Assembly (NCBI GenBank): GCA_963789555.1
Contig: CAWBKY010000004.1
Coordinates: 7,182-71,181, forward strand
Length of the DNA stretch: 64,000 nt
Source: Methanomassiliicoccaceae archaeon
GTDB taxonomy: Archaea > Thermoplasmatota > Thermoplasmata > Methanomassiliicoccales > UBA472
Direction of reading: 5' to 3'
The position numbers were made by a program, and so were the translations under genes. The notes under the pieces were generated by a model. That model was not told where the DNA came from. It saw only the letters and a program-made list of their open reading frames with translations, and ran no database searches. Below are positions 5,705 to 58,048 of this stretch, piece after piece. Position 1 is the first letter of the stretch, and every line of letters begins with the position of its first letter.

Positions 5705-5874
5705 AAATTATTTAAAGATATGCCGCTCGCCATCTGGCCGTCATATTTATGGCACAAGGGCGAGGGCCCGTTCCGCTCAAAGAAGAATCTGGCACATCCT
5801 CATCCCGATAAGGAGTGATGGAGAAATGATAATAAGACGCTTTTCCTTCTACCACGACGAACGAGAGTGAAGGA

Positions 5875-8759
5875 ATGCTGACCCGCTCCACCGACATCGA
5901 GGCCAAGTGGCAGGAACGCTGGTACGCCGAGAGGATCAACGAGGCGGACCGGGACGAGCGCGAGAAGTTCATGATCATCTTCGCCTACCCCGGTGTCACT
6001 GGCTACCTGCACGTCGGGCACATGCGCGGGTTCTCCTACGTGGATGATATCGCGCGGTACAAGCGCATGCAAGGGTACAACGTGCTCTTCCCCGTCGGCA
6101 CGCATGCCACCGGCAACGGCCCGATCAGCCTGGCCAAGCGCGTGGCCTCGGGCGACGAGGACATGATCGACTACCTGCGCCGCAACGGCTGCCCCGAGGA
6201 CGTCATACCCGAGCTCACCGACCCGCTGGCGGTGGTGGAGTTCTTCAACAAGGTCTACGTGGAGCAGTACTGGCGCCGCTTCGGCTTCCTGGCCGACTGG
6301 AGGCGCTTCGCCTGCACCACCCATCCCCAGTACGGCAAGTTCATCCAGTGGCAGTTCCGCAAGCTCATGGACGCGGGGCTGCTCATCCAGAAGCCGTACT
6401 ACTCTCCGGCGTGCATCACCCACGGCCCGGTGGCCATCGACGCCTCCGAGACGGACATCGCCTGCGGCGGCTGCGCCGAGACCACCGAGTACACGCTGAT
6501 GAAGTTCCGATGCGGCGAGCTCACGCTGCTGGCGGCCACCCTCCGCCCGGAGACCGTCTTCGGCCAGACCAACTTCTGGGTCAACCCCGAGGTGGAGTAT
6601 GTCAAGGTGGTGTGCGGCGACGAGATCTGGGTGATGAGCCGGCCTTGCTACGACAAGATGCTCTACCAGAAGGACCGGCTCAAGGAGGTCGGGACGATGT
6701 GGGGCGCTGAGCTCATCGGTCAGGATGTGCACCGCGCCCATGACCGGCCGGGAGATCGTCTGCCTGCCGGCCTCGTTCTGCGACCCGAACGTGGGCACCG
6801 GCCTGGTGGTCAGCGTGCCCTCGGACGCCCCGGACGACTGGGTGGCGCTGCGCATGCTGCAGGAGGACGAGGAGGCCTGCCTCCGTTACGGCCTGGACTG
6901 GGAGATGGTCAAGGCCATCGCGCCCATCGCCATCATCGAGACCAAGGGCTGGGGGCCCATGCCCGCCGTGGAGATCGTGGAGAGGATGGGCATCACCCGC
7001 TCCGGCGACCCCAAGCTGGTGGAGGCGAAGAAGATCGTCTACAAGGAGGGCTTCCACGCCGGGAGGATGAACCAGGACTGCGGCCAGTACTCCGGACTGC
7101 CGGTCGATAAGGCCAAGGAGGCCATGAGGCAGGACATGCTGCGCGCCAACGAGGCGGACCTGTTCTACGACCTCTCCGAGACGGTCATCTGCCGCTGCGG
7201 CGAGCCGGTGGTGATCAAGAAGGTGGACGACCAGTGGTTCATCGATTACGCCAACCCCATGGTCACCGAGCTGACCAAGCGGCACGCCGAGGGCATGCGC
7301 ATAATGCCGACGGAGTATCAGACCAACGTGCAGGGCGTCCTGGACTGGTTCCGGGAGCGCGCCTGCGTGCGCCAAGGGAACTGGCTCGGCACCCGCTTCC
7401 CGTTCGACGAGAAGTGGATCATCGAGGCCATCTCCGACTCCACCCTCTATCCCGTCTTCTATCTGATCTCGCCCTATGTCAACGACGGCTCGGTCAGGCC
7501 GGAGCAGATGGGCACCGAGTTCTTCGACTACGTGCTGCTGGGCAGGGGCGACCTGGACCACGTGGCCAAGCGCAGCGGCGTGGAAAGGGAGGTTCTGGAG
7601 CGGATGCGCGCCGACGTGGACTACTGGTACCCGCTGGACGTCAACCTGGGCGGCAAGGAGCACATGACCGTGCACTTCCCCGCCTTCCTGATGAACCACG
7701 TGGCCATACTGCCGCCGGAGAAGTGGCCCCGGGGCATATTCGTCAACTGGTACGTGATGAGCAAGGCCGGCAAGATATCCAAGTCCAAGGGAGGGGCCCA
7801 GCCCATACCGGGGGCGGCGGAGCTCTACGGCGTGGACAGCATGCGGCTGTACTACGCGCACATCGCCTCGCCCTTCGCCGACGTGGAGTGGGACGAGGAG
7901 GTGCTGGAGAACTACGTGGCCAAGATGGACCGCATCATGCGCACGGTGGAGGAGCTGTCCGCGATGGAGGAGAGCGAGGCCATCGAGCCCATCGACACCT
8001 GGCTGCTTTCTCGCATGAACAGCCGCATGGCCTCCATCGTCAGGGGCATGGAGCAGCTGGACCTGCGCAACCTGGCCGGGGAGGCGTACTTCGAGATCCC
8101 GAACGACCTGAAGTGGTACCTGCGCCGGGGCGGCAGCAACGGCGCCGTCGTCGGTCGGGCGCTGGACATGTGGGTCCGGGCCATGGCGCCGATCACGCCG
8201 CACACGGCGGAGGAGATGTGGGAGCACCTGGGCAAGGAGGGCCTGGTGGCCAAGGCCAGGTTCCCCTGCGCGGATGCGGCGGAGATGTCCCAGGCGGCGG
8301 AGCTGGCGGAGGACTACGTGCGCAAGCTCCTGGAGGACGTCAACGAGATCGTCAAGGTCACCAAGATCGCGCCGAAGCGGGTGCTGGTGTACACCGCCCC
8401 GGAGTGGAAGGAGAAGGTGCTGCAGAAGGCCATCGCGCTCTTCCGCGACAACGAGCTCAAGGTGCCCACGCTCACCAAGCAGGTCATGCAGGACGAGGAC
8501 ATCAAGAGGCATGGCAAGGAGGCGTCCGACCTGGCCCGCAAGATGGCGGAGGACCTGACGCGCCGTTCCGCGGACGAGGTGGAGCGCATGGCGGTGCGGT
8601 TCGACGAGCTCGGAGTACCTGCGCCAGGCGGAGGGCTTCCTGGCCCGGGAGCTGCAGTGCGAGGTGGGCGTCTTCGATGCCGCCGACCCGCAGCGGGTGG
8701 ACCCTCAAGGCAAGTCCCGCGCCGCCCAGCCCCGCCGGCCGGCCATCTACCTGGAATGA
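5875..8759 (+). CDS. leuS: Leucine--tRNA ligase (archaeal type), frameshifts at about 6720 and 8610
   Basis: 'AYPGVTGYLHVGH' (HIGH), 'AATLRPET', 'SVPSDAPDD', 'GKISKSKG' (KMSKS) and C-terminal 'PRRPAIYLE'. Confidence 0.95.
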
Positions 8760-8807
8760 TGCCGTTCCAGCCAAACCTTCTTTTTGTTACCTTGAAATAG
8801 CGGGACC

Positions 8808-26101: not shown

Positions 26102-27101
26102 ATGGCTAAGAAACCCACTGAGGCCAAGAAAGAGGCAATCGAAGCGGGCCAAGGTCAAACCCTAGAAGGGAGCTAGCGGAGCACGGGTACCAATGAGACC
26201 ATTGAAGCCAAGGATGCAATTCCTTCAGGACCTCGATGAAGCTGATTCTAAGGAATCCCCTTGGCGGTCACTGGTCTTATGATCTTGATAGCCATCATTG
26301 CCATGGCCTTCATGGCGCCTTACCTGGCACCACCAGTCTACCAGGACCCTTACCAGATGCCTAAGGACTATGAGCCACCAAAGCCACCCGGTGCGGAGGG
26401 TCATCCATTCGGAACCGGAAAATGGGGCTCCGACATCTATTATGGTATAGTCTGGGGGGCGAGGCTTTCAATTCTGGTCTCGATCTATGTAGTCTTCTGT
26501 GCGGCCATCATAGGAATTCTAGTCGGTGCCCTATCAGGATATGTAGGAGGTTGGTTCGACGAGATCGTGATGCGCATCACTGACATCTTCCTATCGATAC
26601 CAGGGCTGATACTTGTCGATGGCGATAGTGGCCGTGCTATCGCGAAATTTGGAAAATATCATGCTTTCATTGATCATCGTTTGGTGGCCTCCATACGCTC
26701 GATTGGTCCGAGGGCAGGTGCTCTCGGTCAAGGAGAGCACCTATGTGGAGGCGGCCCGGGCGGTGGGCGTGAAGAAGTCGCGCATATTGTTCCGGCACAT
26801 CATCCCCAATTCCATGGCCCCGATGATCGTGTCCATAACCATGGACCTGGGGGCGGTGGTGCTGGTGGCCGCGGCCCTTAGCTACATCGGTTTCGGCGTG
26901 CCGCCGGGAACGGCGGAGTGGGGCAAGATGGTCTCAGATGGCCAGGAGTATTTCATGAGCACGGTCGAATACAACGGCGAACTGATAAATCCCTGGTGGA
27001 TGGTGACCATCCCCGGTCTGGCCATATTGTTATTCGTAATGGGCTTCGCACTGTTGGGTGATGCTCTCCGAGATATAATGGACCCGAGGGCACGGAGGTG
27101 A
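26102..27101 (+). CDS. Oligopeptide ABC permease (OppC/DppC-like, frameshifted)
   Basis: 'HPFGT', 'YVEAARAVG', 'HIIPN' and 'GDALRDIMDP'. Confidence 0.88.
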
Positions 27102-27105
27102 GCCC

Positions 27106-28620
27106 ATGAGCAAAGAGAAAATGGTCGAGATACAGAACCTGTACGTGAATTTCTATACCCAATCCGGAGTGGTCAAGGCCATCGACGGCGTCAATCTCAC
27201 GCTGTTCAAGGGGGAGACCTTCGGCCTGGTGGGCGAGACCGGATGCGGAAAGAGCGTCACCGCCAACAGCGTCATGAAGCTGATACCCCAGCCTCCGGGA
27301 AAGATCGAGAAGGGCAGGATCTTCTTCATGCCCCCGGGCGGAACGGAGGAGGAGATGCAGAGGATCCAGGAGCAGATAAACGAGCTGAGGTCCAAGCCCG
27401 ACCTGCCCAAGGACGACCCGCAGATCAAGAGGTTGGAGAAGGATCTGGCCGAGCAGAAGGCGGTGGCCGACATCACCGCCCGATGGAACTTGCTCTGGAA
27501 ACAACCCGCCTCCCCGGAGCGCGATGCCAAGATATCCGATCTGGACAAAGAGCTCTATGCCATTCTCAACAAGTACGACCTCATCCCCCGGACCAAGAAG
27601 TACATGCAGAAGATCCGGGGCAAGTACATCTCCATGATCTTCCAGGAACCCATGGCGCGCGCTGAACCCGGTGTTCACCGCCGGTTACCAGATATCCGAG
27701 GTGCTACTGCTGCACGAGCGCAGGGAGCTGGCCAACTCGGCGCTGAAATCGGTGGAGGAGGAGAAGAAGTACCTCAAGACCCACAAGCTGGCCAAGAAGA
27801 TCAAGGACGTCAAGGGGGAGAACAAATGCAGCATCTGCAGCTCGGCCGTCCAGGACGAGGTGGACCGTTGCCCTAACTGTGACAACTACTTCAAGGCGGT
27901 ACCGCTCAAGCCGTTGAAGATCACTGTCGCTCAGATATGACCGCCGCCAAGCTGAAGCGCGTGAAGAAGAACCCCTACTCGTTCATCAACAAGCGCCTGG
28001 CCGGTCGCCGTATCAAGCTGGAATCGATGGAACGCGCCGAGCGCATGCTTCGCCTGGTCCGCATACCCGACCCGCAGAAGGTGGTCAACTCCTACCCGCA
28101 TGAGCTGAGCGGGGGGATGCAGCAGCGGGTGATGATCGCCATCGCCCTGGCCTGCAAGCCGCAGATGCTCATCGCGGACGAGCCGACCACCGCGTTGGAC
28201 GTCACCATCCAGGCCCAGATCCTGAAGCTGATGCGCGAGCTGCAGGAGGAGACCGGCACATCCATCCTGATGATCACCCACAACCTCGGGCGTGGTGGCG
28301 GAGATGTGCGACCGGGTCGGGGTCATGTACGCCGGGGTCGATCGCCGAGGTCGGTCCGACTGGCCCGGTGTTCAAGGAGCCATTGCACCCATATACCCAG
28401 GGTCTGATGAACTCCATCCCCAAGGTCAACATCGACCTGCCCCGGCTGGAGACCATCGAAGGGAAACGTGCCCAATCTGATCAAGCCGCCCTCAGGCTGC
28501 CGTTTCCATCCCCGTTGCCCATATGCCATGGACATCTGCCGCAAGCAGAAGCCGCCCATGATGGAGATCAGACCGAACCACTATGGCCGCCTGTCATCTC
28601 TACACGGGGGTGACCTTGTG
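27106..28620 (+). CDS. Oligopeptide ABC ATPase (OppD-like) with large insertions, frameshifted
   Basis: Walker A GETGCGKS, 'IFQEPM', 'LSGGMQQR', 'ADEPT', 'HPYT' and 'GCRFHPRC'. Confidence 0.88.
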
Positions 28621-36940: not shown

Positions 36941-37134
36941 TGTCGCATACAGGATGATGCTATTAAAATGTTTTCCAATCGTTCCAGCCAGCATCCATAT
37001 TGAATGTTCGTCTCGCCGCCCGGTCCTGTTCGATAGCGAGGGGATCGAAACAACCTTCACATTGTAAGCGGTGCCCTCGCTTCGCCATAAAGCAGATTAA
37101 GGGGCCGCTCCAATGGTCGGGGGAGGTCAGGATA

Positions 37135-38004
37135 TTGCCGGTGGAGACTAAACCAGCATGGCTAAAGATTCGCCATATGCCGACCGAAGGCATGGCGGAG
37201 ACGAGGCGGATGAACCGCGAGCTGGGCCTTCATACCGTTTGCGATTCCGCTCATTGCCCTAACATCGGTGAGTGCTGGAGGACCAAGAGCGCCACCTATC
37301 TGATCATGGGCAACAACTGTACAAGGGACTGCCATTTCTGCGCCGTCGCCCATGGGCCCCCAGACGCCTTGGACCCAGACGAACCGCGGAGGGTGGCGGA
37401 GGCGGTGTCGCGGACCGGCTTGGAATACGTCGTCATAACGTCCGTCACCAGGGACGACCTGTTGGACGGGGGGGCCTCTCATTTCGCCGAAACGACGTCA
37501 GCCATAAGGGGGAGGAACCCAGGATGTCTGGTCGAGCTCCTCATCCCGGACCTGCGAGGGGACATGAAGGCCCTGCAGACAATTCTCCAGGCCGCACCAG
37601 ATGTCCTCGGCCACAACATCGAGGTGGTGAGGCGCCTGCAGCCCATAGCGCGGGATCGGATGGCGTCCTACGAGAGGTCGCTGGCATTGCTCCAGGCAGC
37701 GAAGATGGTCAGACCTGAGGTCGTGACCAAGTCCTCGTTGATGCTGGGACTGGGCGAGACCGAGGAAGAGGTGCAACAATGCCTGCAGGACCTGGTCCAT
37801 GCGAAGGTGGACATCCTTACCGTGGGGCAGTACCTGCGACCGAGCTCGGACCATTTGCCGGTGGAAAGATATTACCCGCCAGAGGAGTTCACGTCGATAA
37901 GGGGGCGGGCTTTGGGCATGGGCTTCAAGGCCGTTCTTTCCGGACCGTTCGTCCGTTCATCTTACAAGGCCAAGGAGGCCTACCATATGGCTAGAGGAGA
38001 GTGA
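37135..38004 (+). CDS. lipA: Lipoyl synthase
   Basis: CX4CX5C (CDSAHCPNIGEC), CX3CX2C (CTRDCHFC), 'GQYLRPS' and 'VRSSY'. Confidence 0.95.
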   Translation: MPVETKPAWLKIRHMPTEGMAETRRMNRELGLHTVCDSAHCPNIGECWRTKSATYLIMGNNCTRDCHFCAVAHGPPDALDPDEPRRVAEAVSRTGLEYVVITSVTRDDLLDGGASHFAETTSAIRGRNPGCLVELLIPDLRGDMKALQTILQAAPDVLGHNIEVVRRLQPIARDRMASYERSLALLQAAKMVRPEVVTKSSLMLGLGETEEEVQQCLQDLVHAKVDILTVGQYLRPSSDHLPVERYYPPEEFTSIRGRALGMGFKAVLSGPFVRSSYKAKEAYHMARGE

Positions 38005-38008
38005 GAGT

Positions 38009-39091
38009 TTGCTAGTGGATGATTTCGACCCCTTGAAAGGCAAGAGACTGGAGATCCTGAGGAAGGACGGCAGCGTCAACAAGGAACTGGAGCCGAAGAT
38101 AGATGACGGCACGTTGCTCAAGGCCTACCGCACCATGGTGCTGACCCGGGTCGCCGACGATAAGGCAGTGAAGCTGCAGCGGCAAGGCCGACTCGGCGCC
38201 TATCCGCCCACCAAGGGGCAGGAGGCCAGCCAGATCGGTCCCGCCCTGGCCATGGGACCGAACGATTGGCTGGTCTGGGCCTTCCGCGAGCTGGGAGGCC
38301 TGATCTACCGGGGCGTCCCGCTCTGGCGCCTCTACCTTTACTGGATGGGCAACGAGGAGGGCAGCAGCTATCCCGAAGGGGTGCGTGCGACGCCATCCGT
38401 CGTCCCGGTCGGCTCGCAGGTCCCGCACGCGGTCGGCATCGCCTACGCCGCCAAGCTGAGGAAGGAGGACACCGCCGTGGTGTGCTTCTTCGGCGACGGC
38501 GGAACGTCCGAAGGGGACTTCCATGAGGGGCTGAACTTCGCCGGGGTGATGCGCACCCCGAACGTCTTCATCTGCCAGAACAACCAGTGGGCCATCTCCG
38601 TCCCGAGGGAGAGACAGACCGCTTCAAAGACCATCGCCCAGAAGGCGGTGGCCTATGGCTTCCCCGGGATACAGGTCGATGGCAACGACGTCCTCGCCCT
38701 CTATGCGGCGACCAAGGAGGCGCTGGAACGGGCCAGGAAAGGCGAGGGACCGACGCTCATAGAATCATACACCTACCGCATGGGGGACCACACCACATCC
38801 GATGACGCCACCCGCTACCGATTGGACAAGGAACTAAAGGAATGGGCGGACCGCGACCCCATCGCCAGGTTCAGGGTCTACCTGACCAACCGAGGTCTAT
38901 GGGGCGAGGAGAAGGAGAGGGCATTGCTGGAAGAGGTCTCCGCCATGGTGGAGGAGGAGGTCAAGAGGGCCGAGTCCTTCCCGAGACCGACCTTCGAGGA
39001 TTGCTTCCGCCACACCTACGCCACCATGCCGGACGACCTGAGGGAGCAGATGGAAGCGCTCCGCAGGGAACTGCCCACCGGGAGGGAGTGA
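38009..39091 (+). CDS. pdhA: 2-oxoacid (pyruvate-type) dehydrogenase E1 alpha
   Basis: 'LQRQGR', 'GQEA', TPP motif [15 protein letters not shown]...QNNQW and '[11 protein letters not shown]'. Confidence 0.92.
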
Positions 39092-39093
39092 AC

Positions 39094-40071
39094 ATGGTCA
39101 TGATGAACATGGTGCAGTCCATCAACCTCGCGCTCCGCGAGGAGATGGACCGGGACCCCAGCGTCGTGCTGTTGGGCGAGGACGTGGGGGTGGACGGCGG
39201 GGTGTTCCGCGTCACCGAAGGTCTGCTCGACCGATTCGGGACGGAGAGGGTCATCGACACCCCGCTGGCCGAGGCCGGCATCGCCGGGGTCGCCATCGGG
39301 ATGGCCATGAACGGACTGCGCCCGGTGGCCGAGGTCCAGTTCATGGGGTTCGGCTATCTGACCTTGAACCAGATGATCTGCCATGCGGCCCGGATGCGCA
39401 ACCGCACCCGGGGTCGGCTCACCGTCCCCATGGTGCTTGCGCACCCCATACGGCGCGGGCGTGAAGGCGTTGGAGCATCATTCGGAGAGCACGGAGGCCC
39501 TGTTCACCCAGATCCCCGGGCTCAAGGTGGTGGTACCATCCACGCCATTGGAGGCCAAGGGCCTTCTGACCTCTTCCATTCGTGACCCCGACCCGGTCAT
39601 ATTCTTGGAGCCGACGCGCAGCTATCGCATGCTCAAGGAGGAGGTGCCCAGCGGGGAGTACACCGTGCCCTTGTCCCAGGCCCGGGTGGTCCAGGAAGGC
39701 ATCGACCTCACCGTCATCGGCTGGGGTGCCATGATCCCGCAGATACAGAAGGCGTTGGATCGACTGGCGCGGCAAGTACAGTTGCGAGGTCATCGATCTG
39801 CGCACGCTCTCCCCATTGGACTCGAACACCATCATCCGGTCGGTCAAGAAGACGGGACGGTGCGTGGTGGTGCAGGAGGCGCCCAAGAGCTTTGGCGTCG
39901 GAGCGGAGATAGCCGCCCGCATCAACGAGAAGGCGTTGCTGTCGCTGGAGGCGCCGGTGGAGCGGGTGGCCGCCCCTGACATCACCATCCCCTTGCCCAA
40001 GGGCGAGGACTACTATTACATAGGACCAGAGAGAATTAAAAGACGCGATCGAAAGGACCATGGGCTTCTGA
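39094..40071 (+). CDS. pdhB: 2-oxoacid dehydrogenase E1 beta (frameshifted)
   Basis: 'GEDVG..GGVFR', 'DTPLAE', 'EVQFMGF', 'EHHSES' and 'VIDLRTLSP'. Confidence 0.9.
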
Positions 40072-40080
40072 GGTGGACAA

Positions 40081-41331
40081 ATGGCGACTAACTTCGTATT
40101 TCCCGACCTGGGGGAGGGCGTGACCGAGGGTGAGATCAAGAAATGGCTCGTGAAGGTCGGCGACAAGGTGAAGCTGGACCAGTCCCTGGCGGAGATGGAG
40201 ACGGACAAGGCGGTGGTGGAGATGCCCTCGCCCGCCGCTGGCAAGGTCCTGCAGTTGAACTTCAAGGAGGGTGACATGGTCCAGGTCGGTCAGACCCTGG
40301 CGGTCATAGGCGAGGAGGCCGAGGCCCCTCCGCCCGTCACCAAGAAGGTGGAGGGCAAGCGCGAGTCGATATCAGTGGTGGGGGAGCTGCCCACCGAAGA
40401 GATAACCGTATCTTCCACCGCCACCAAGGTCGCGGAGGCGACGACGGCAGATGTGCTCGCCACGCCGGCAGTGCGAAAGCTGGCCAAGGACAAGGGCGTG
40501 GAGATCTCCAAGGTGCGCGGCTCTGGTCCGGAAGGAAGGGTCATGGAAGGGGACATCAATGCCGCCGCGCTCCCGGCCAAGCCGAAGCTGGCATCCCGCC
40601 CCAAGTTCGACATCTATGGCTGGGTGGAACGGGTCCCGATCAAGGGCGTGAGGCGTACCACCGCCAAGCACATGATGGAGTCCCAGGCCAAGGTGGCCGC
40701 CGTGACCACGATGGACCAGGCCGACGTCACCGACCTGGTGGCCATGAGGGAGAAGGTGAAGGTGGCGGTGGAGAAGGAGCGTGGGGTGAAGCTCACTTAC
40801 ATGCCCTTCATCATCAAGGCGGTGGTGGCATCCCTGAAGGCCCATCCGCTGCTCAACTCCGTGGTCGATGACGAGGCGGAGGAGATCGTCATGAAGAAGT
40901 ACTACAACATCGGCGTGGCCGTGGCCATCGACGACGGTCTCATCGTGCCGGTGGTCAAGGGGGCGGACCAGAAGAGCATGGTGGACCTGGCGGAGGAGGT
41001 CCACAAGCTCGCCGAGATGGCGAGCGCTCGCAAGCTGGACCTGGCCGACCTCAAGGGCGGGACGTTCACCATCACCAACTACGGGGTGTTCGGGAGCACC
41101 TACGGCACGCCGATCATCAACTACCCCGAGGTGGCCATCCTGGGCGTGGGAAGGATCATGGACATGCCCCTGGTCGTCAACGGGGAGATCAAGGCGCGCA
41201 AGGTGCTGCCACTGTCGCTCACGTTCGACCACCGGGCCTTCGACGGGGCGGAGGCGGCGAAGTTCGTCAATGACCTCAAGAGGTATCTGGAGAACCCGGA
41301 GCTGCTCATATTGCAGGCGTCTAGCGGCTGA
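40081..41331 (+). CDS. pdhC: Dihydrolipoamide acyltransferase E2
   Basis: Lipoyl site ETDKA, subunit-binding domain 'ATPAVRKLA...GSGPEGR' and catalytic 'FDHRAFDG'. Confidence 0.93.
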   Translation: MATNFVFPDLGEGVTEGEIKKWLVKVGDKVKLDQSLAEMETDKAVVEMPSPAAGKVLQLNFKEGDMVQVGQTLAVIGEEAEAPPPVTKKVEGKRESISVVGELPTEEITVSSTATKVAEATTADVLATPAVRKLAKDKGVEISKVRGSGPEGRVMEGDINAAALPAKPKLASRPKFDIYGWVERVPIKGVRRTTAKHMMESQAKVAAVTTMDQADVTDLVAMREKVKVAVEKERGVKLTYMPFIIKAVVASLKAHPLLNSVVDDEAEEIVMKKYYNIGVAVAIDDGLIVPVVKGADQKSMVDLAEEVHKLAEMASARKLDLADLKGGTFTITNYGVFGSTYGTPIINYPEVAILGVGRIMDMPLVVNGEIKARKVLPLSLTFDHRAFDGAEAAKFVNDLKRYLENPELLILQASSG

Positions 41332-42076
41332 GGTTCCATTCGTCGTTGGAGTAACGGTCGCGGGCAATGACCTCCACCCGGGCCGACTCGTCACGGCTCA
41401 GGTCGTCGAGGAACCACTCCTTGCCCTCGACGAAGGCGTTGAACATGGCGAGCAGCAGCTCCTCCAGGGTGGCCTCGGAGACGTCCCTGACGCTGGTGAC
41501 CCGGTCCTGGAACGAGGCCAGGTCCTTGTCGGAGATCTTGGTGCGACCGACCTTGAGCACCGAGAACATGGTCTCGGGGTCCACGTCGAACAGGACCGTT
41601 CCGTGCATGGTGAAGACGCCCTGCCGGCGGGTCTGCGCGCTGCCGGAGATCTTCCGACCTCCCACCAGGATATCGTTGATGGGCTTGAACTCCGCCTCGA
41701 TCCCTATGGCCGCCAGGCCGGCGACGATGAGATGGCATATGTCGCGATAGGAGGCGTTGATGTCCTTGCTCACCAACCGCTCCGGGCAGATGACGCTGTA
41801 GGTGATCTCCCCCTCCTCGTCATGGTACACGGCGCCTCCGCCGGTGCGCCTCCGCACCAGGTCGATGCCCCTCCGCCGGCATTCCTCCAGCTCCACCTCG
41901 TCCTCGGCGCTCTGGAAGCGGCCTATGCTGATGGCGGAGGGCCTCCACCCGTAGATACGGACGGTGGGCGAGGCCTCGTTGAAGGATATGGCCTCCGCCA
42001 CCGCCTCATCGATGGCCATGTTGACGGCGGCATTGTGGTATTGGAAAGGTATCAGGCGCCATCTGTCCCGGAGCAT
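41321..42076 (-). CDS. lplA: Lipoate-protein ligase catalytic subunit
   Basis: 'NMAIDEA', 'RRRTGGGAVYHD', 'NDIL..GRKISGSAQ' and 'HGT'. Confidence 0.9.
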   Translation of the reverse strand: MLRDRWRLIPFQYHNAAVNMAIDEAVAEAISFNEASPTVRIYGWRPSAISIGRFQSAEDEVELEECRRRGIDLVRRRTGGGAVYHDEEGEITYSVICPERLVSKDINASYRDICHLIVAGLAAIGIEAEFKPINDILVGGRKISGSAQTRRQGVFTMHGTVLFDVDPETMFSVLKVGRTKISDKDLASFQDRVTSVRDVSEATLEELLLAMFNAFVEGKEWFLDDLSRDESARVEVIARDRYSNDEWNLSR

Positions 42077-42365
42077 ATCTCCTCCAAAAGCTCGGCCACG
42101 TCCCTGGGGGCGAAGCCGATGACCGTCAAACCCTCCTTCTCCATGGTCTCGATCAGGGCCTTCTCGGCGCTCGCGAAGAATGCCCGATGGTGTTCAATCC
42201 CGTCAGGGCGACCTCCATCTTGGCCAGTCCCTCCTCCGGGTGCACGAAGAAGTCACCTTCGATGCGGACCTCTGCCAACATCCCCCCTTGCACGGCGGCC
42301 TTGACGCGCACCAGCTTGCCGCCCTTCACCTTGCGCTCGGCCATGCGATAGGGGGAGCGTTCCAT
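42052..42365 (-). CDS. Lipoate-protein ligase C-terminal (LplB-like) subunit, frameshifted
   Basis: 'KVKGGKLVRV' and 'IEGDFFVHPEE'. Confidence 0.8.
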
Positions 42366-42665
42366 CTACTTGACCTCGGCCCAGGCCTTGAGCTTGTCCA
42401 TGTTGATGCGGGCGCCGCAGATGGCCTTGCCCGTCCTTTCGTTGTAGAAGGCCGGAACGCCCAGGTCCCCGCCGCAGGCCTCGGAGATGACATCGCCGTA
42501 CTTCTGCATCAGCTTCTGGTTCTCCTGGTCGTGCCAGACCTCCAGCCGGTCCAAGGCGATGCCGGTCTCGGCCTCGAACTGATCGACCACTGGCTTGAGC
42601 TGTCTGCAATGCGGGCACTCCCTTCCATGGAACCAGATCAACCTCTGTCCTACCTCTGCCATCAC
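42366..42665 (-). CDS. Thioredoxin-fold protein (CPHC)
   Basis: 'FHGRECPHC', 'LEVWH' and cis-Pro loop 'GVPAFYN'. Confidence 0.85.
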   Translation of the reverse strand: MMAEVGQRLIWFHGRECPHCRQLKPVVDQFEAETGIALDRLEVWHDQENQKLMQKYGDVISEACGGDLGVPAFYNERTGKAICGARINMDKLKAWAEVK

Positions 42666-43102
42666 GGCACCTCCTTATGGCGTTTCACGAAGAGACCGCA
42701 CCAGCATTCCCCCGTCTCCTTGTAGGCGTTCTGCCTGAGGAAATTGCAGGGGCATATCAGGTTCAGGTCCTTCTGGAAATCGCCGGTGGGTATGCGGCAG
42801 GGGCAGTACTTTAGACCTTTGTTGGCGCGGTTCTCCAGGACGCCCTTGGAGAGCAGCTCCACCTCGTCCCCCTTGTCCGTCATCTTGAACTCGGGGCTCT
42901 GCTCCCCGAACCTCCTCCAGACCTCGATCACCGCCTCCTGGGTGGCGATCTCGCCCCCTTCAGTACCGATGATGCGGAGCGCCTCGTCATGGTCGATCAA
43001 CATGAAGGCCCGCTTCGCTCCGCAGGTGGGGCACACCTCAGGAGGGTTTATGCCATAATGGAGGTCGTTGCACACGTGGCAGCGCCAAAGTCTCTTTCCC
43101 AT
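42662..43102 (-). CDS. Rubredoxin-like domain fused to ferredoxin:thioredoxin reductase catalytic domain
   Basis: 'WRCHVC...PPEVCPTCGA' followed by FTR motifs CPC, CPC and CWC. Confidence 0.88.
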   Translation of the reverse strand: MGKRLWRCHVCNDLHYGINPPEVCPTCGAKRAFMLIDHDEALRIIGTEGGEIATQEAVIEVWRRFGEQSPEFKMTDKGDEVELLSKGVLENRANKGLKYCPCRIPTGDFQKDLNLICPCNFLRQNAYKETGECWCGLFVKRHKEVP

Positions 43103-46079: not shown

Positions 46080-46088
46080 GGTTTGAGC

Positions 46089-46466
46089 ATGATCAAGGAC
46101 ATCAACGAGGCGCTCTTCAACGATCTGATGAAACGCACCGACAAGGTGGTGGTGGTCGAGTTCTGGTCGCCAAGTTGCTCGATATGCAAGGACGTCGCAC
46201 CGGCGTACGAGCAGGTGGCCCAAGAGCTGGAGCAGGAGGCGACGTTCATCCGCATCAACACCGATGGGAACGTCCAGATGGCGCAGAGGCTGGGGGTCAC
46301 GGGCACACCCACCTTCATGTTCTTCTGCCGCGAGGGCAAGGTGGGCGAGGTGGTGGGCCTTACCTCGGCCACGCTGTTGCGCAACACCATCCGCGATTCC
46401 ATCAAGTACAACACCGCCTGCCCTCGGAAGAAGAGGCCGTCCTACGACATGGACGGCTACGGCTAG
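46089..46466 (+). CDS. Thioredoxin (CSIC)
   Basis: 'VEFWSPSCSIC' and 'GTPTFMFF'. Confidence 0.85.
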   Translation: MIKDINEALFNDLMKRTDKVVVVEFWSPSCSICKDVAPAYEQVAQELEQEATFIRINTDGNVQMAQRLGVTGTPTFMFFCREGKVGEVVGLTSATLLRNTIRDSIKYNTACPRKKRPSYDMDGYG

Positions 46467-55861: not shown

Positions 55862-56363
55862 AAAAACCGCCTTGGCCAAGTCAAGAGGCGTTCAAATTAT
55901 TATTAGTTCTGTAGAGGCGGCTGATGGCGGAATACTTTCAAACAAAGTTGCGGGAGTTTTCAGTTTTTTCATACAGCGTTCGTTCCACAATCGGAACCAA
56001 ATGAGTGGTGTCAGATTGTAATGGTAGGCCAAAAAATGATATGGAAAAAGGGGACTGACCGGATAGACAGATATGGTCCTATTTGTGCGATTGCCAAGCG
56101 AGATGGGATCATCTTCGTTGTTGAGGTAGAGTGGGACGAGAGCTTTCTACACCTGAGGGGATGGGAGTGGAAGTAAACATGGCAAAACGTCCTCAATGAT
56201 ATGAGAGAGAAGCAAACTCATCCCTCTTTCTCCTTAATTTTTTCCATTGGGGAAAGTGATAAGGGTTAGTATCTTCTATTAAAAAATGAGGCCTCTGTGA
56301 GTTAGCTGAGGCCTGCATCAAGTCACTTTCAAAAACCTCAGAGGGAGGAGGAGGTGAGAAAAG

Positions 56364-56621
56364 ATGCCAGTGGTGACGATCGACATAATAAAAGGAGCAT
56401 TCAGCAAGGATCAGAAGGTGGAGATGATGAAGCGTGTTTCCGAGGTGGTCGCTGAGATCGAGAGCCGTCCTGATCCAAAGGAGAACATGCTTCCATTCGT
56501 ATATTGCATCATCCGAGAGACCGAATGGGGGGACTTTGGCAATAATGGGGTAGCCATAACGCCAGAATTGCTGCATGCGGTGAAAAAGGGAATCGTCCAA
56601 ATTTCGATCAAGCAGCCGTAG
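56364..56621 (+). CDS. 4-oxalocrotonate tautomerase family protein
   Basis: Catalytic N-terminal Pro (MPVVTI), 'SKDQKVEM' and a strong GGAGGTGA RBS. Confidence 0.85.
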   Translation: MPVVTIDIIKGAFSKDQKVEMMKRVSEVVAEIESRPDPKENMLPFVYCIIRETEWGDFGNNGVAITPELLHAVKKGIVQISIKQP

Positions 56622-56725
56622 AATATGGTCAGTGAAGGATAGGAGAGATAAGGAAACACTTTCCTTTTCATCTTTTCAGATATATGATCGATCATATCAC
56701 GTGTATACATTCATCTTCTACCACA

Positions 56726-56817
56726 GAGACAGACCACTGGATAAGAAAAATAACGAAAGGCCCTGAAAAGGGACCTGACGCGGAAATCCAGCAAGAGTGG
56801 GCCCAATGAGATTTGGA
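56726..56817 (+). repeat. Copy 1 of an about 90-bp direct repeat containing the tRNA-Ile 3' end (att-like)
   Basis: Near-identical to 57898-57993. Confidence 0.85.
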
Positions 56818-57789
56818 ACAACGCGACCGTCTGGATAAATCAAAAAGATCCCTTTAACGCGATAGCCCTGTCGTGAGGATTCCGGAGAGATGAGCAAACA
56901 CTTTTCCCATTTTTTTAACAAGTGATAAATAAGCGGCTTCTTAATTTTGACATAGGGGTTAGAGAGGAGAGAAACTTGAAAAGTTACCTGATGGTTGGCT
57001 TGGTTGTATTTGTCACCATAATTCTACTGGCCACCGTTTTTTTCCTATTTTTCCTTCCTGATGATGAGCAAGAAGTCGGGCAAACGAAATTTGGATGAGA
57101 TGAATATGAGGTCGGAGACTAGTTAGTATTTTTTCAACAATACCAGTCTATACCCTGATGGTGGGAAAGGATTTTTCAATGGTTTTTCCCGGTGTGATGT
57201 TAAAAGTATCTCAAATATGGAGATTATGTTGGATCTCGAGTGGGGGAGAATATCTGGATAATATGTCACATTGGAATTCCTCCTTCCCAAGAGAATCCTG
57301 CTACGCATTCAATGTTATGGCAATAAATCTACACTCGGATGTAGTGCAGCATGTGGAGGAGCTTGGGAATGAAGTCAATCCAAACGGCATGGGGTCCCAA
57401 GATGTCGCCAAAAGAATCTAAGATCATGGTTAAACCTCGATTACTGATGAAGATTGGATTAATCATCTAAAGGCAGGTGGACTGCATTTTTATGGATAAT
57501 TTGGAGGGGTGATTATCTGACAAGTTTTTCCTTTAGTCATCAAAATGGTGATCTTCTGGAGTGTCTGGAACTCCGGGACACGAATCTTAAGGAGATCATC
57601 ACTCCATAAGGATTATTGATCACCAAATTATCTGAGCCAAGGCCTGACAGAATATTCATAGGAGTGGATCAGCGCGGGATTGTTACCCGAGGAAAAGGAC
57701 TGGCAAGAGTACGAAAATTTCCCTAAAGTGTAAAAGATATGAGAGGAATCTTTTGGCAGTGGGATTAGATATATGAACGAAACCCCTCG

Positions 57790-57880
57790 GGACGCCCATC
57801 GAGAAGCATTGCATTCGAGATGCTTGGGCATGAGAGCATCGACATGACGCGTAAGTATCTCGGACTGTGCCTAGACGACC
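57790..57880 (+). pseudogene. Tyrosine integrase C-terminal remnant
   Basis: 'EMLGHESIDMTRKYLGL' matches the LGH...T..Y catalytic box. Confidence 0.7.
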
Positions 57881-57897
57881 GAATAAAGAACCATGGC

Positions 57898-57993
57898 GAG
57901 ACAAGACGACTGGATAAGAAAAATAACGAAAGGCCCCGAAAAGGGACCTGTCGTGGTAATACAGCAAGAGTGGTGGGCCCAAAGAGATTTGGA
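57898..57993 (+). repeat. Copy 2 of the about 90-bp direct repeat, overlapping the tRNA-Ile 3' end
   Basis: Near-identical to 56726-56817. Confidence 0.85.
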
Positions 57994-58048
57994 CTCTTGA
58001 CCTCCCGGTTATCAGCCGGGCGCTCCAGCCAGGCTAAGCTATGGGCCC
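57971..58048 (-). tRNA. tRNA-Ile(GAT), CCA encoded
   Basis: Reverse complement GGGCCCATAGCTTAGCCTGG...CCCGG-CTGATAA-CCGGG...AAGAGTCCAAATCTCTTTGGGCCCACCA. Confidence 0.93.

Follow-up and report, generated by a model that had tools for sequence, protein, structure and literature searches.

The locus and its genes

The window analysed here is a 64,000-nucleotide stretch of contig CAWBKY010000004.1 (positions 7,182 to 71,181, forward strand; assembly GCA_963789555.1) from a Methanomassiliicoccaceae archaeon, which is read as a methanogen because mcrA lies on the same contig. 2-Oxoacid dehydrogenase complexes are three-enzyme machines, and their flavoprotein E3, dihydrolipoamide dehydrogenase (Lpd), is thought indispensable. 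The cluster at window positions 37135 to 43102 carries the E1 and E2 genes of such a complex with no E3 gene, and facing them are genes for a small thioredoxin (Trx)-like protein and for a fusion of a rubredoxin-like domain with a ferredoxin:thioredoxin reductase (FTR) domain, here called Rd-FTR. We tentatively propose that in this cluster, and in a wider clade of related clusters, the Trx-like protein may have taken the place of E3. The eight genes are as follows.

37135 (approximate)..38004, + strand: lipA, lipoyl synthase; start uncertain, within 37126–37177
38009..39091, + strand: E1 alpha, thiamine diphosphate-binding subunit of a heterotetrameric E1 (PF00676, 315.7 bits)
39088..40071, + strand: E1 beta (PF02779 and PF02780, in pieces across three consecutive frames)
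40081..41331, + strand: E2 acyltransferase (PF00364, 80.9 bits; PF02817, 56.5 bits; PF00198, 307.6 bits)
41321..42076, − strand: LplA, large catalytic subunit of a bipartite lipoate-protein ligase (PF21948, 185 bits)
42052..42365, − strand: LplB, small subunit of the ligase (NF053749, 54.1 bits)
42366..42665, − strand: small Trx-fold protein, 99 aa, CPHC active site (weak Pfam matches, all below cut-off)
42662..43102, − strand: rubredoxin-like and FTR catalytic-type fusion, 146 residues (PF21349, 37.3 bits; PF02943, 53.2 bits; both above cut-off)

The lipA product matches NF004019 (393.4 bits) and TIGR00510 (356.1 bits) above their cut-offs and PF04055 with 73.7 bits, and is 89% identical to an open reading frame (ORF) from a genome of the same genus (locus L023). 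E1 alpha scores 484.3 bits against TIGR03181 (cut-off 411). E2 has a lipoyl domain (lipoyl-Lys43 in the motif ETDKA), a peripheral subunit-binding domain (PSBD, residues 125–159) and a catalytic domain (DHRxxDG at 383–389), with K43, H384 and D388 in invariant columns of the family alignment. LplA reaches 200.9 bits against NF053750, under the cut-off of 480, and the LplB match is confined to profile positions 2–50 of 86 in NF053749 because of a frame break. Judged by these matches, the locus encodes the E1alpha-beta/E2 core of a 2-oxoacid dehydrogenase complex and a complete lipoylation system (LipA, LplA/LplB). Elsewhere in the genome (G000:C10:51695-52214) lies another LplA-like gene, which is frame-broken and about 30–52% identical to that of the cluster.

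The minus-strand genes are tightly spaced, with overlaps of 4 nt between Rd-FTR and Trx and of 25 nt between LplB and LplA and no gap between Trx and LplB, so that the four genes probably form one transcript. The convergent LplA and E2 genes share 11 nt at their ends. Profile and tblastn searches detected no class-I disulfide reductase gene at the window locus. A preliminary description, made from the window sequence alone, had already given this order of the eight genes, their coordinates, the tight coupling of the minus-strand run, its overlap with the plus-strand genes and the lack of a dihydrolipoamide dehydrogenase gene in the cluster, and all of this is borne out.

Frame breaks in E1 beta and LplB

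That description overlooked three frame breaks in E1 beta, near 39435, 39760–39770 and 40043, and a single one in LplB at ~42173–42189. Taken at face value, they would make E1 beta and LplB pseudogenes in a decaying cluster, an explanation that we reject as highly improbable. The same-genus genome has intact ORFs at both places (E1 beta, 326 aa; LplB, 103 aa), relative to which the window has single extra letters exactly at the breaks, and neither gene shows in-frame stops or other lesions beyond these indels. Wherever contigs from two public runs of separate studies (X1 and X7) reach a break (39435, 39759–39770, 40043 and 42173–42192), they read without the extra letters, and the broken form is repeated in none of them.

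Frame errors are also frequent throughout this assembly. Of 176 long ORFs taken from 17 regions of 20 kb in a complete genome of the same family, 128 had an orthologue-like match covering at least 70% in the window genome; at least one frame change was present in 52 of these 128 genes, with 71 changes in ~154 kb of coding sequence (0.46 per kb). Examples in the window lie at 5836–8800 and 27079–28407, and a class I aminoacyl-tRNA synthetase gene and an ABC transporter gene are also split. Because of this error rate, the intact same-genus ORFs and the X1 and X7 contigs, we regard the breaks as assembly artefacts and read both genes as intact; at such a rate any pseudogene call in the window therefore needs an error check first.

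Linkage of Trx and Rd-FTR genes to E1/E2 across genomes

We examined 41 genomes of Methanomassiliicoccales relatives, 30 with a strong E2 match and 11 without. An FTR match lies within 5 kb of E2 in 29 of the 30 E2-bearing genomes, and in the thirtieth FTR and E2 are on different short contigs. A scan with an Rd-FTR alignment, taking one genome per species, returned 80 loci that were then screened with the proteins of the cluster. The named relatives that this protein brought up are MAGs of Methanomassiliicoccaceae and Methanomassiliicoccales.

Methanomassiliicoccales, 45 Rd-FTR loci: Trx-like gene adjoining in 45/45; E1/E2 in 37/43 assessable
Bathyarchaeia, 4 Rd-FTR loci: Trx-like gene adjoining in 4/4; E1/E2 in 4/4
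Bacteria (Aminicenantes, Acidobacteriota and metagenome-assembled genomes (MAGs) labelled Eubacteriales), 22 Rd-FTR loci: Trx-like gene in 21/22; E1/E2 in 9/18 assessable
DPANN, Methanosarcinales and unclassified, 9 Rd-FTR loci: Trx-like gene in 2/9; E1/E2 in 0/8 assessable

Overall, E1/E2 genes adjoin the FTR-Trx pair in 50 of 73 assessable Rd-FTR loci, spread over three phyla, and none of the 80 loci contains an Lpd-like gene scoring at least 100 bits. The linkage is kept in different gene orders. The Methanomassiliicoccales arrangement is convergent with LplB-LplA between, that of Bathyarchaeia is convergent without ligase genes between, and the bacterial arrangement is a co-directional FTR-Trx-E1alpha-E1beta-E2 unit among unrelated housekeeping genes, lying on one Aminicenantes contig between secA/IMPDH and fumarase/panC/panB. 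Wherever Rd-FTR and E2 coexist in a genome the two are neighbours, and no E2 of any kind was found in the 25 genomes whose Rd-FTR does not adjoin E1/E2. In five of five further genomes the FTR-Trx-linked E2 is the sole strong E2 (one of them, G041, has an extra partial match of 32.5 bits). The layout further indicates that FTR-Trx is co-transcribed with LplB-LplA in Methanomassiliicoccales, a second tie to lipoyl biology. The preliminary description had counted a lack of conservation of this linkage, in combination with a bona fide lpdA elsewhere, as grounds for abandoning its interpretation; as it turns out, FTR-Trx and E1/E2 stay together in Methanomassiliicoccales, where lplAB lies between them, in Bathyarchaeia and in Aminicenantes-type bacteria.

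Trx-linked and E3-linked operons are separate

Across the class Thermoplasmata, E2 was detected in 31 of 101 sampled genomes, a tally that includes one unpublished genome (G165). We compared the cluster with ten E2 loci that belong to five further families of Thermoplasmata. All ten have a canonical-type Lpd gene on the same strand no more than 1.7 kb downstream of E2 (directly adjacent in seven), and in six lipA is found upstream of E1 alpha. These operon-borne Lpds score 197–335 bits against a canonical query and 76–181 bits against the flavoprotein encoded elsewhere in the window genome (see below). On this comparison of gene order the Methanomassiliicoccales have lost the operon E3, with nothing at that place in the clusters of the order.

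As the Rd-FTR loci had been collected by means of FTR, we also scanned metagenomes with an E2 alignment, which is not biased by FTR. This gave 80 loci with E2 identities of 37–57%, grouped below by identity to the E2 of the window.

E2 identity ≥49.5%, 14 loci: Lpd downstream in 0/10 visible (none anywhere in the locus); Trx-like gene directly upstream of E1 alpha in 5/7
E2 identity 44.5–49.5%, 11 loci: Lpd directly downstream in 2/6; Trx-like gene directly upstream of E1 alpha in 1/6
E2 identity <44.5%, 55 loci: Lpd directly downstream in 14/29; Trx-like gene directly upstream of E1 alpha in 1/20

No locus among these metagenomic E2 relatives carries a Trx-like gene and an Lpd together. Three of the five Trx-linked loci with E2 identity of at least 49.5% have FTR too. 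Four metagenome loci (L165, L166, L168 and L183) show Trx-E1alpha-E1beta-E2 with no FTR match, two of which are judgeable, since L168 and L183 extend less than 800 nt upstream of Trx and an FTR there could not have been seen. Such loci make the Trx-like gene the part most closely tied to the complex.

Trees of the complex proteins give the same division. For a concatenated E1alpha, E1beta and E2 tree, 89 loci were considered and the 48 with all three proteins whole were kept, the rest being truncated, frame-broken or lacking genes. A branch with a support of 100 in the Shimodaira–Hasegawa-like approximate likelihood ratio test (SH-aLRT) has 41 FTR/Trx-linked clusters on one side and seven E3-linked Thermoplasmata on the other. 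Bathyarchaeia are nested within Methanomassiliicoccales (SH-aLRT 95–100) and the bacterial clusters are sister; the nested position of the Bathyarchaeia clusters (L053 and L055–L057) suggests that the module has passed from one archaeal phylum to another. For E2 alone, a tree with 121 rows (48 Trx-linked, 26 Lpd-linked, 47 of unknown context) needs a single change of label, with SH-aLRT 89. These trees, which are quick ones made without bootstraps and whose root is unknown, support one putative switch between the E3-type and the Trx-type operon, followed by horizontal spread.

The Trx-like protein and Rd-FTR

The Trx-like protein belongs to a family in which 68 of 73 members collected by motif have the CPHC active site. 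Invariant positions of the family alignment include F12, E16, C17, C20, W44, H45, N49, C64, P71, C83 and G84; C17 and C20 form the active site and C64 and C83 are two additional invariant cysteines. The AF2 model (pLDDT 92.4) has a minimal thioredoxin fold of beta-alpha-beta-alpha-beta-beta-alpha order with the C17-C20 motif at the start of the first helix (18–34), and its best Foldseek matches are thioredoxins (TM 0.6–0.7). The window protein scores 16.6 bits against PF00085 (cut-off 23.5), and 16 of 17 family members match that profile at E ≤0.01. The protein belongs to a divergent thioredoxin subfamily, set apart by its extra C64 and C83. A canonical thioredoxin (PF00085, 76 bits) is encoded at 46083–46466 (+), 3 kb past the cluster and beside histidinol dehydrogenase.

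Longer forms of the Trx-like protein were DPANN proteins that are secreted or anchored in the membrane, one fusion to a phosphatase and one gene call garbled by frame errors. Four DPANN proteins (P0001, P0002, P0004 and P0005) carry the four-cysteine Trx-like domain at the C-terminus, one of them with a dual-specificity-phosphatase-like domain. These C-terminal domains hint at a disulfide-donor role for the family.

Rd-FTR starts with a rubredoxin-like CxxC...CxxC segment (residues 8–27), followed by the FTR motifs CPC...CPC...CWC. C100, C102, C117, C119, C133 and C135, the set expected to hold the [4Fe-4S] cluster and the redox-active disulfide, and the four rubredoxin-type cysteines are invariant in the alignment. 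Among solved chains, 4tpu_A (E 4.9e-19, its domains in opposite order) and 7pwe_A are closest. We take 4tpu to be the ferredoxin:disulfide reductase (FDR) of Methanosarcina acetivorans, although the molecule name in the PDB entry is 'Rubredoxin'. A review lists FDR as a [4Fe-4S] ferredoxin:disulfide reductase of M. acetivorans. An in-frame TGA considered as a selenocysteine codon of FTR was rejected, as it is the stop codon itself, passed over where the frame was read on into the following gene. The genome also encodes another FTR paralogue (111 aa, CPC...CPC...CWC) that lacks the rubredoxin-like domain (G000:C1:69004-69339, − strand), flanked on the same strand by two small genes with Cys/His motifs that look Rieske-type by eye.

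An Lpd-like flavoprotein gene elsewhere in the genome

The window genome, which is 80% complete, contains one full-length match to lipoamide dehydrogenase models, on the minus strand at G000:C9:39913-41301. This flavoprotein scores 319.7 bits against TIGR01350 (cut-off 408.8) and 591.1 bits against NF004947 (cut-off 592), a model named dihydrolipoyl dehydrogenase. A tblastn search of the genome with a canonical bacterial Lpd returned nothing besides it, and the window genome and its 24 family relatives have a single Lpd-like gene each. The protein has a CLNRGC redox disulfide and an HPALSE His-Glu dyad, and GGTCLNRGCIPSK and HPALSE are conserved in all 12 aligned archaeal homologues. A CxxxxC disulfide with a His-Glu dyad is also common to glutathione and mycothione reductases. 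The closest solved chains are mycothione reductases, with 245–259 bits, the best Lpd scoring 173 bits. At the end of the second strand of the NAD-binding fold, the NAD-ribose position where NAD-dependent Lpds have an acidic residue, 11 of the 12 archaeal homologues read Gly-Arg/His-Asn and the twelfth, from Bathyarchaeia, Ser-Arg-Ser, and four bacterial Lpds scoring above the TIGR01350 cut-off read Leu-Glu. At 25–30% identity to the operon E3s of the sister lineages, the archaeal flavoprotein is not their orthologue. Its His-rich C-terminal tail (...DPEHHH) has a nearly invariant Pro and first His in the alignment, and a PHP-domain-like gene, named by eye, lies beside the Lpd-like gene in ten of ten loci of relatives and is convergent with it in the window genome; it is the sole conserved neighbour and offers no clue to function.

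Of the 30 E2-bearing relatives, 29 have the Lpd-like gene, the other being a genome of 59% completeness, and so do 5/5 and 40/40 (E ≤1e-60) further cluster-bearing genomes, in samples that partly overlap. Methanomassiliicoccales without E2 have it in just 4/11 and 3/5. It is never near E2, being at least 139 kb away wherever both are on one contig. In the 40-genome sample, all 32 Methanomassiliicoccales copies are below the Lpd cut-off (mostly 285–345 bits, with three partial matches of 223–249) and one of three Bathyarchaeia copies is above it. Bacterial genomes with the cluster have a canonical Lpd in four of four cases and, in a further sample, in four of five above the cut-off, the fifth being cut by a contig end.

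The glycine cleavage protein GcvH is encoded in 35 of 41 relatives, and GcvH and GcvT are both present in the window genome. Four near-complete genomes (G029, G031, G033 and G037) have GcvH without an Lpd-like gene, and four others (G015, G027, G032 and G036) have the Lpd-like gene without E2, G032 lacking GcvH too. A complex prediction of the Lpd-like dimer with the E2 PSBD (residues 118–168) gave no answer (score 0.00) and is evidence neither way. The description 'E3-less' is therefore shown for the operon, and for canonical Lpd in the family, but not for the cell. The search for lpdA that had been proposed for this genome and its relatives has had a divided outcome, as canonical Lpd is absent from the family and an unlinked Lpd-like gene is nearly always there. 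Whether the latter is the bona fide lpdA that was to help overturn the earlier interpretation is ambiguous, the archaeal copy being mycothione-reductase-like and the bacterial copy a canonical Lpd.

How the lipoyl arm may be re-oxidised

The explanation we lean towards, tentatively and at slightly less than even probability, is that the lipoyl arm has the Trx-like protein as its partner instead of E3. The clade would have given up the operon-encoded E3, and the four-cysteine CPHC Trx-fold protein would be supplied with the complex, usually together with Rd-FTR. After the action of E1 and E2, dihydrolipoyl-E2 would be re-oxidised by thiol-disulfide exchange with oxidised Trx, making the complex a 2-oxoacid:thioredoxin oxidoreductase. 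Rd-FTR, a putative [4Fe-4S] disulfide reductase of FDR type, may link the same Trx to ferredoxin, either as a second, ferredoxin-driven input of reducing power or as an outlet that re-oxidises Trx. Trx would then be a hub, for which FTR and E1/E2 are alternative reductants. Both the exchange with the lipoyl arm and the direction of flow we infer from gene arrangement and protein family. The idea in the preliminary description of a lipoyl arm cycled by Trx/FTR instead of E3/NAD is partly supported, in its conserved linkage and its E3-less operon, with ferredoxin as a putative electron acceptor. Trx as acceptor would explain why Trx-like genes and E3 exclude each other, why Trx-E1-E2 operons exist with no visible FTR, why FTR-Trx survives where the complex is missing and why the pair is tied to lipoate ligase genes.

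Several observations weigh against this explanation. The FTR-Trx pair is also kept in 25 genomes without E2, and E2-less archaea and bacteria alike can have it at the same syntenic place, so that it is not dedicated to the oxoacid dehydrogenase complex. By textbook potentials, passing electrons from dihydrolipoamide through Trx to ferredoxin is uphill, so FTR is unlikely to be a simple outlet. The PSBD is conserved nearly alike in Trx-linked and Lpd-linked E2s; conservation at one Arg position (LAR-E) is lower among the Trx-linked E2s, a difference too weak to use, and in such complexes the PSBD binds E1 too. Among 90 longer homologues, none was seen to combine the Trx-like domain with E1, E2 or a lipoyl domain, which is weak evidence as they were judged by Pfam columns and six sequences read, with 8000 candidates scored. 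All the evidence is of a comparative kind, drawn from relatives that are not independent of each other and from Rd-FTR loci gathered through FTR. To these must be added the wide occurrence of the Lpd-like gene in archaeal cluster genomes, and of canonical Lpd in bacterial ones, described above.

The required chemistry between Trx and lipoyl groups has precedent in other systems. PMC3426790 cites three cases: in mammalian complexes the oxidation of alpha-ketoacids drives the reduction of thioredoxin, in mycobacteria E2-bound lipoamide feeds a Trx-like protein, and in E. coli glutaredoxin is reduced by protein-bound dihydrolipoate.

Alternative explanations

The Lpd-like gene in nearly all cluster-bearing genomes keeps an E3 acting in trans plausible, and about one chance in three is what we would grant to an ordinary complex of this kind. 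The lipoyl arm would be re-oxidised with NAD(P)+ by the unlinked flavoprotein (the NF004947-type protein in archaea, canonical Lpd in bacteria), and Trx and Rd-FTR would be accessories that protect or reactivate the complex when dihydrolipoyl piles up, or that tune its redox state to the ferredoxin pool. The co-occurrence is the strongest argument for it, and the near-threshold NF004947 score of the window genome's copy, its redox disulfide and dyad, and the retained PSBD fit as well; with GcvH and GcvT present, L-protein activity is expected anyway. Against it, the archaeal protein is distant from the sister operon E3s and falls short of TIGR01350, resembles mycothione reductases more than solved Lpds (259 vs 173 bits) and lacks the NAD-site Glu, unlike the four bacterial canonical Lpds compared. 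Also against it are the genomes with the flavoprotein and no E2, one of these lacking GcvH as well, and those with GcvH and no flavoprotein. An E3 in trans also leaves unexplained why no operon has both a Trx-like gene and an Lpd.

A further explanation is that there is no functional link at all, Rd-FTR and Trx being a general ferredoxin-dependent disulfide-reducing pair (for example for class III ribonucleotide reductase, RNR) that is co-inherited or co-transferred with its neighbours. We consider this improbable. The 25 genomes with the pair and no E2 speak for it, as do cluster-less Methanomassiliicoccales, where FTR-Trx lies ~2.3–6.5 kb from NrdD (four fully seen loci), and the precedent of NrdD, NrdH and FDR reported for Methanosarcina barkeri. 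The preliminary description had likewise offered, as its alternative, that FTR and Trx serve the nearby NrdD. This finds little support, as NrdD is in the flanks of just 9 of 80 Rd-FTR loci, all from Methanomassiliicoccales. At the seven of these nine with known layout it lies beyond opposite-strand genes and is therefore not co-transcribed with FTR-Trx there; in the window it is ~8 kb from FTR, behind such genes. Mere neighbourhood also sits poorly with a linkage maintained in three gene orders, with an E2 that is never away from the FTR-Trx pair in genomes having both, and with Trx-like genes directly upstream of E1 alpha in the four metagenome loci without an FTR match (two judgeable). For general duties, moreover, another FTR paralogue and a canonical thioredoxin are available in the genome.

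The proposal that Trx replaces E3 at the lipoyl arm can be taken further, to a pyridine-nucleotide-independent complex in which Trx and Rd-FTR fully replace E3 and wire the lipoyl arm to the ferredoxin/rubredoxin pool, as a five-gene module passed among Methanomassiliicoccales, Bathyarchaeia and Aminicenantes-type bacteria. We regard this full form as unlikely.

Significance

In strict anaerobes, an entire clade of E1/E2 cores has swapped the operon E3 for a Trx-fold protein and an iron-sulfur disulfide reductase. If this swap is functional, it would be a second way of closing the lipoyl cycle, would link 2-oxoacid oxidation directly to the thiol-disulfide and ferredoxin pools, and would help to explain why the complex is kept by methanogens that already have ferredoxin-dependent oxidoreductases. 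That the arrangement is common to unrelated anaerobes hints at a different recycling of the lipoic-acid cofactor. In the literature searched, which largely leaves out subscription journals and supplements, we found no Trx- or FTR-linked 2-oxoacid dehydrogenase in anaerobes, nor any description even of a dedicated Trx accessory of such complexes. A paper on environmental Methanomassiliicoccales mentions a 'pyruvate dehydrogenase complex' in MAGs but does not analyse it further.

Other features of the window

Positions 56001–58000 of the window form a low-G+C stretch (0.44 vs ~0.6 elsewhere) with strong GC skew.

Comparison with known systems

The nearest relative in gene content is the Thermoplasma-type E1alpha-E1beta-E2-E3 operon, the complex of T. 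acidophilum having reportedly been characterised. It shares with our cluster the heterotetramer-type E1, an E2 with one lipoyl domain, PSBD and catalytic domain, and lipA directly upstream. Our cluster differs in that no E3 follows E2, Trx-like and Rd-FTR genes are linked instead, and E1 and E2 fall in a separate clade (SH-aLRT 100). In the Thermoplasma LplA/LplB ligase, represented by NF053749 and NF053750, the small subunit gene likewise lies just upstream of the catalytic subunit gene and overlaps it, whereas here the ligase genes stand behind Rd-FTR and Trx-like in what the layout indicates is one transcript.

The M. acetivorans FDR (4TPU) also combines an FTR-catalytic-type CPC...CPC...CxC domain with a rubredoxin-like domain. 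In contrast, the rubredoxin-like domain here is N-terminal, the third motif is CWC vs CYC, a Trx-like gene is paired with the reductase, and E1/E2 genes are linked to it. M. barkeri is said to have a class III RNR with an NrdH-like redoxin and FDR, and thus resembles our archaeon as an NrdD-bearing methanogen with an FDR-type reductase and a small redoxin; unlike that system, NrdD is here separated from the pair, both in the window and in the loci of known layout that have it in their flanks.

In the mycobacterial Lpd-DlaT-AhpD-AhpC relay and the mammalian complexes, as cited in PMC3426790, electrons likewise pass from dihydrolipoamide on E2 to a Trx-like protein. There the exchange is a side branch of a complex that has its E3, whereas in the clusters described here, to go by genomics alone, a Trx-like protein is encoded in the operon in E3's place.

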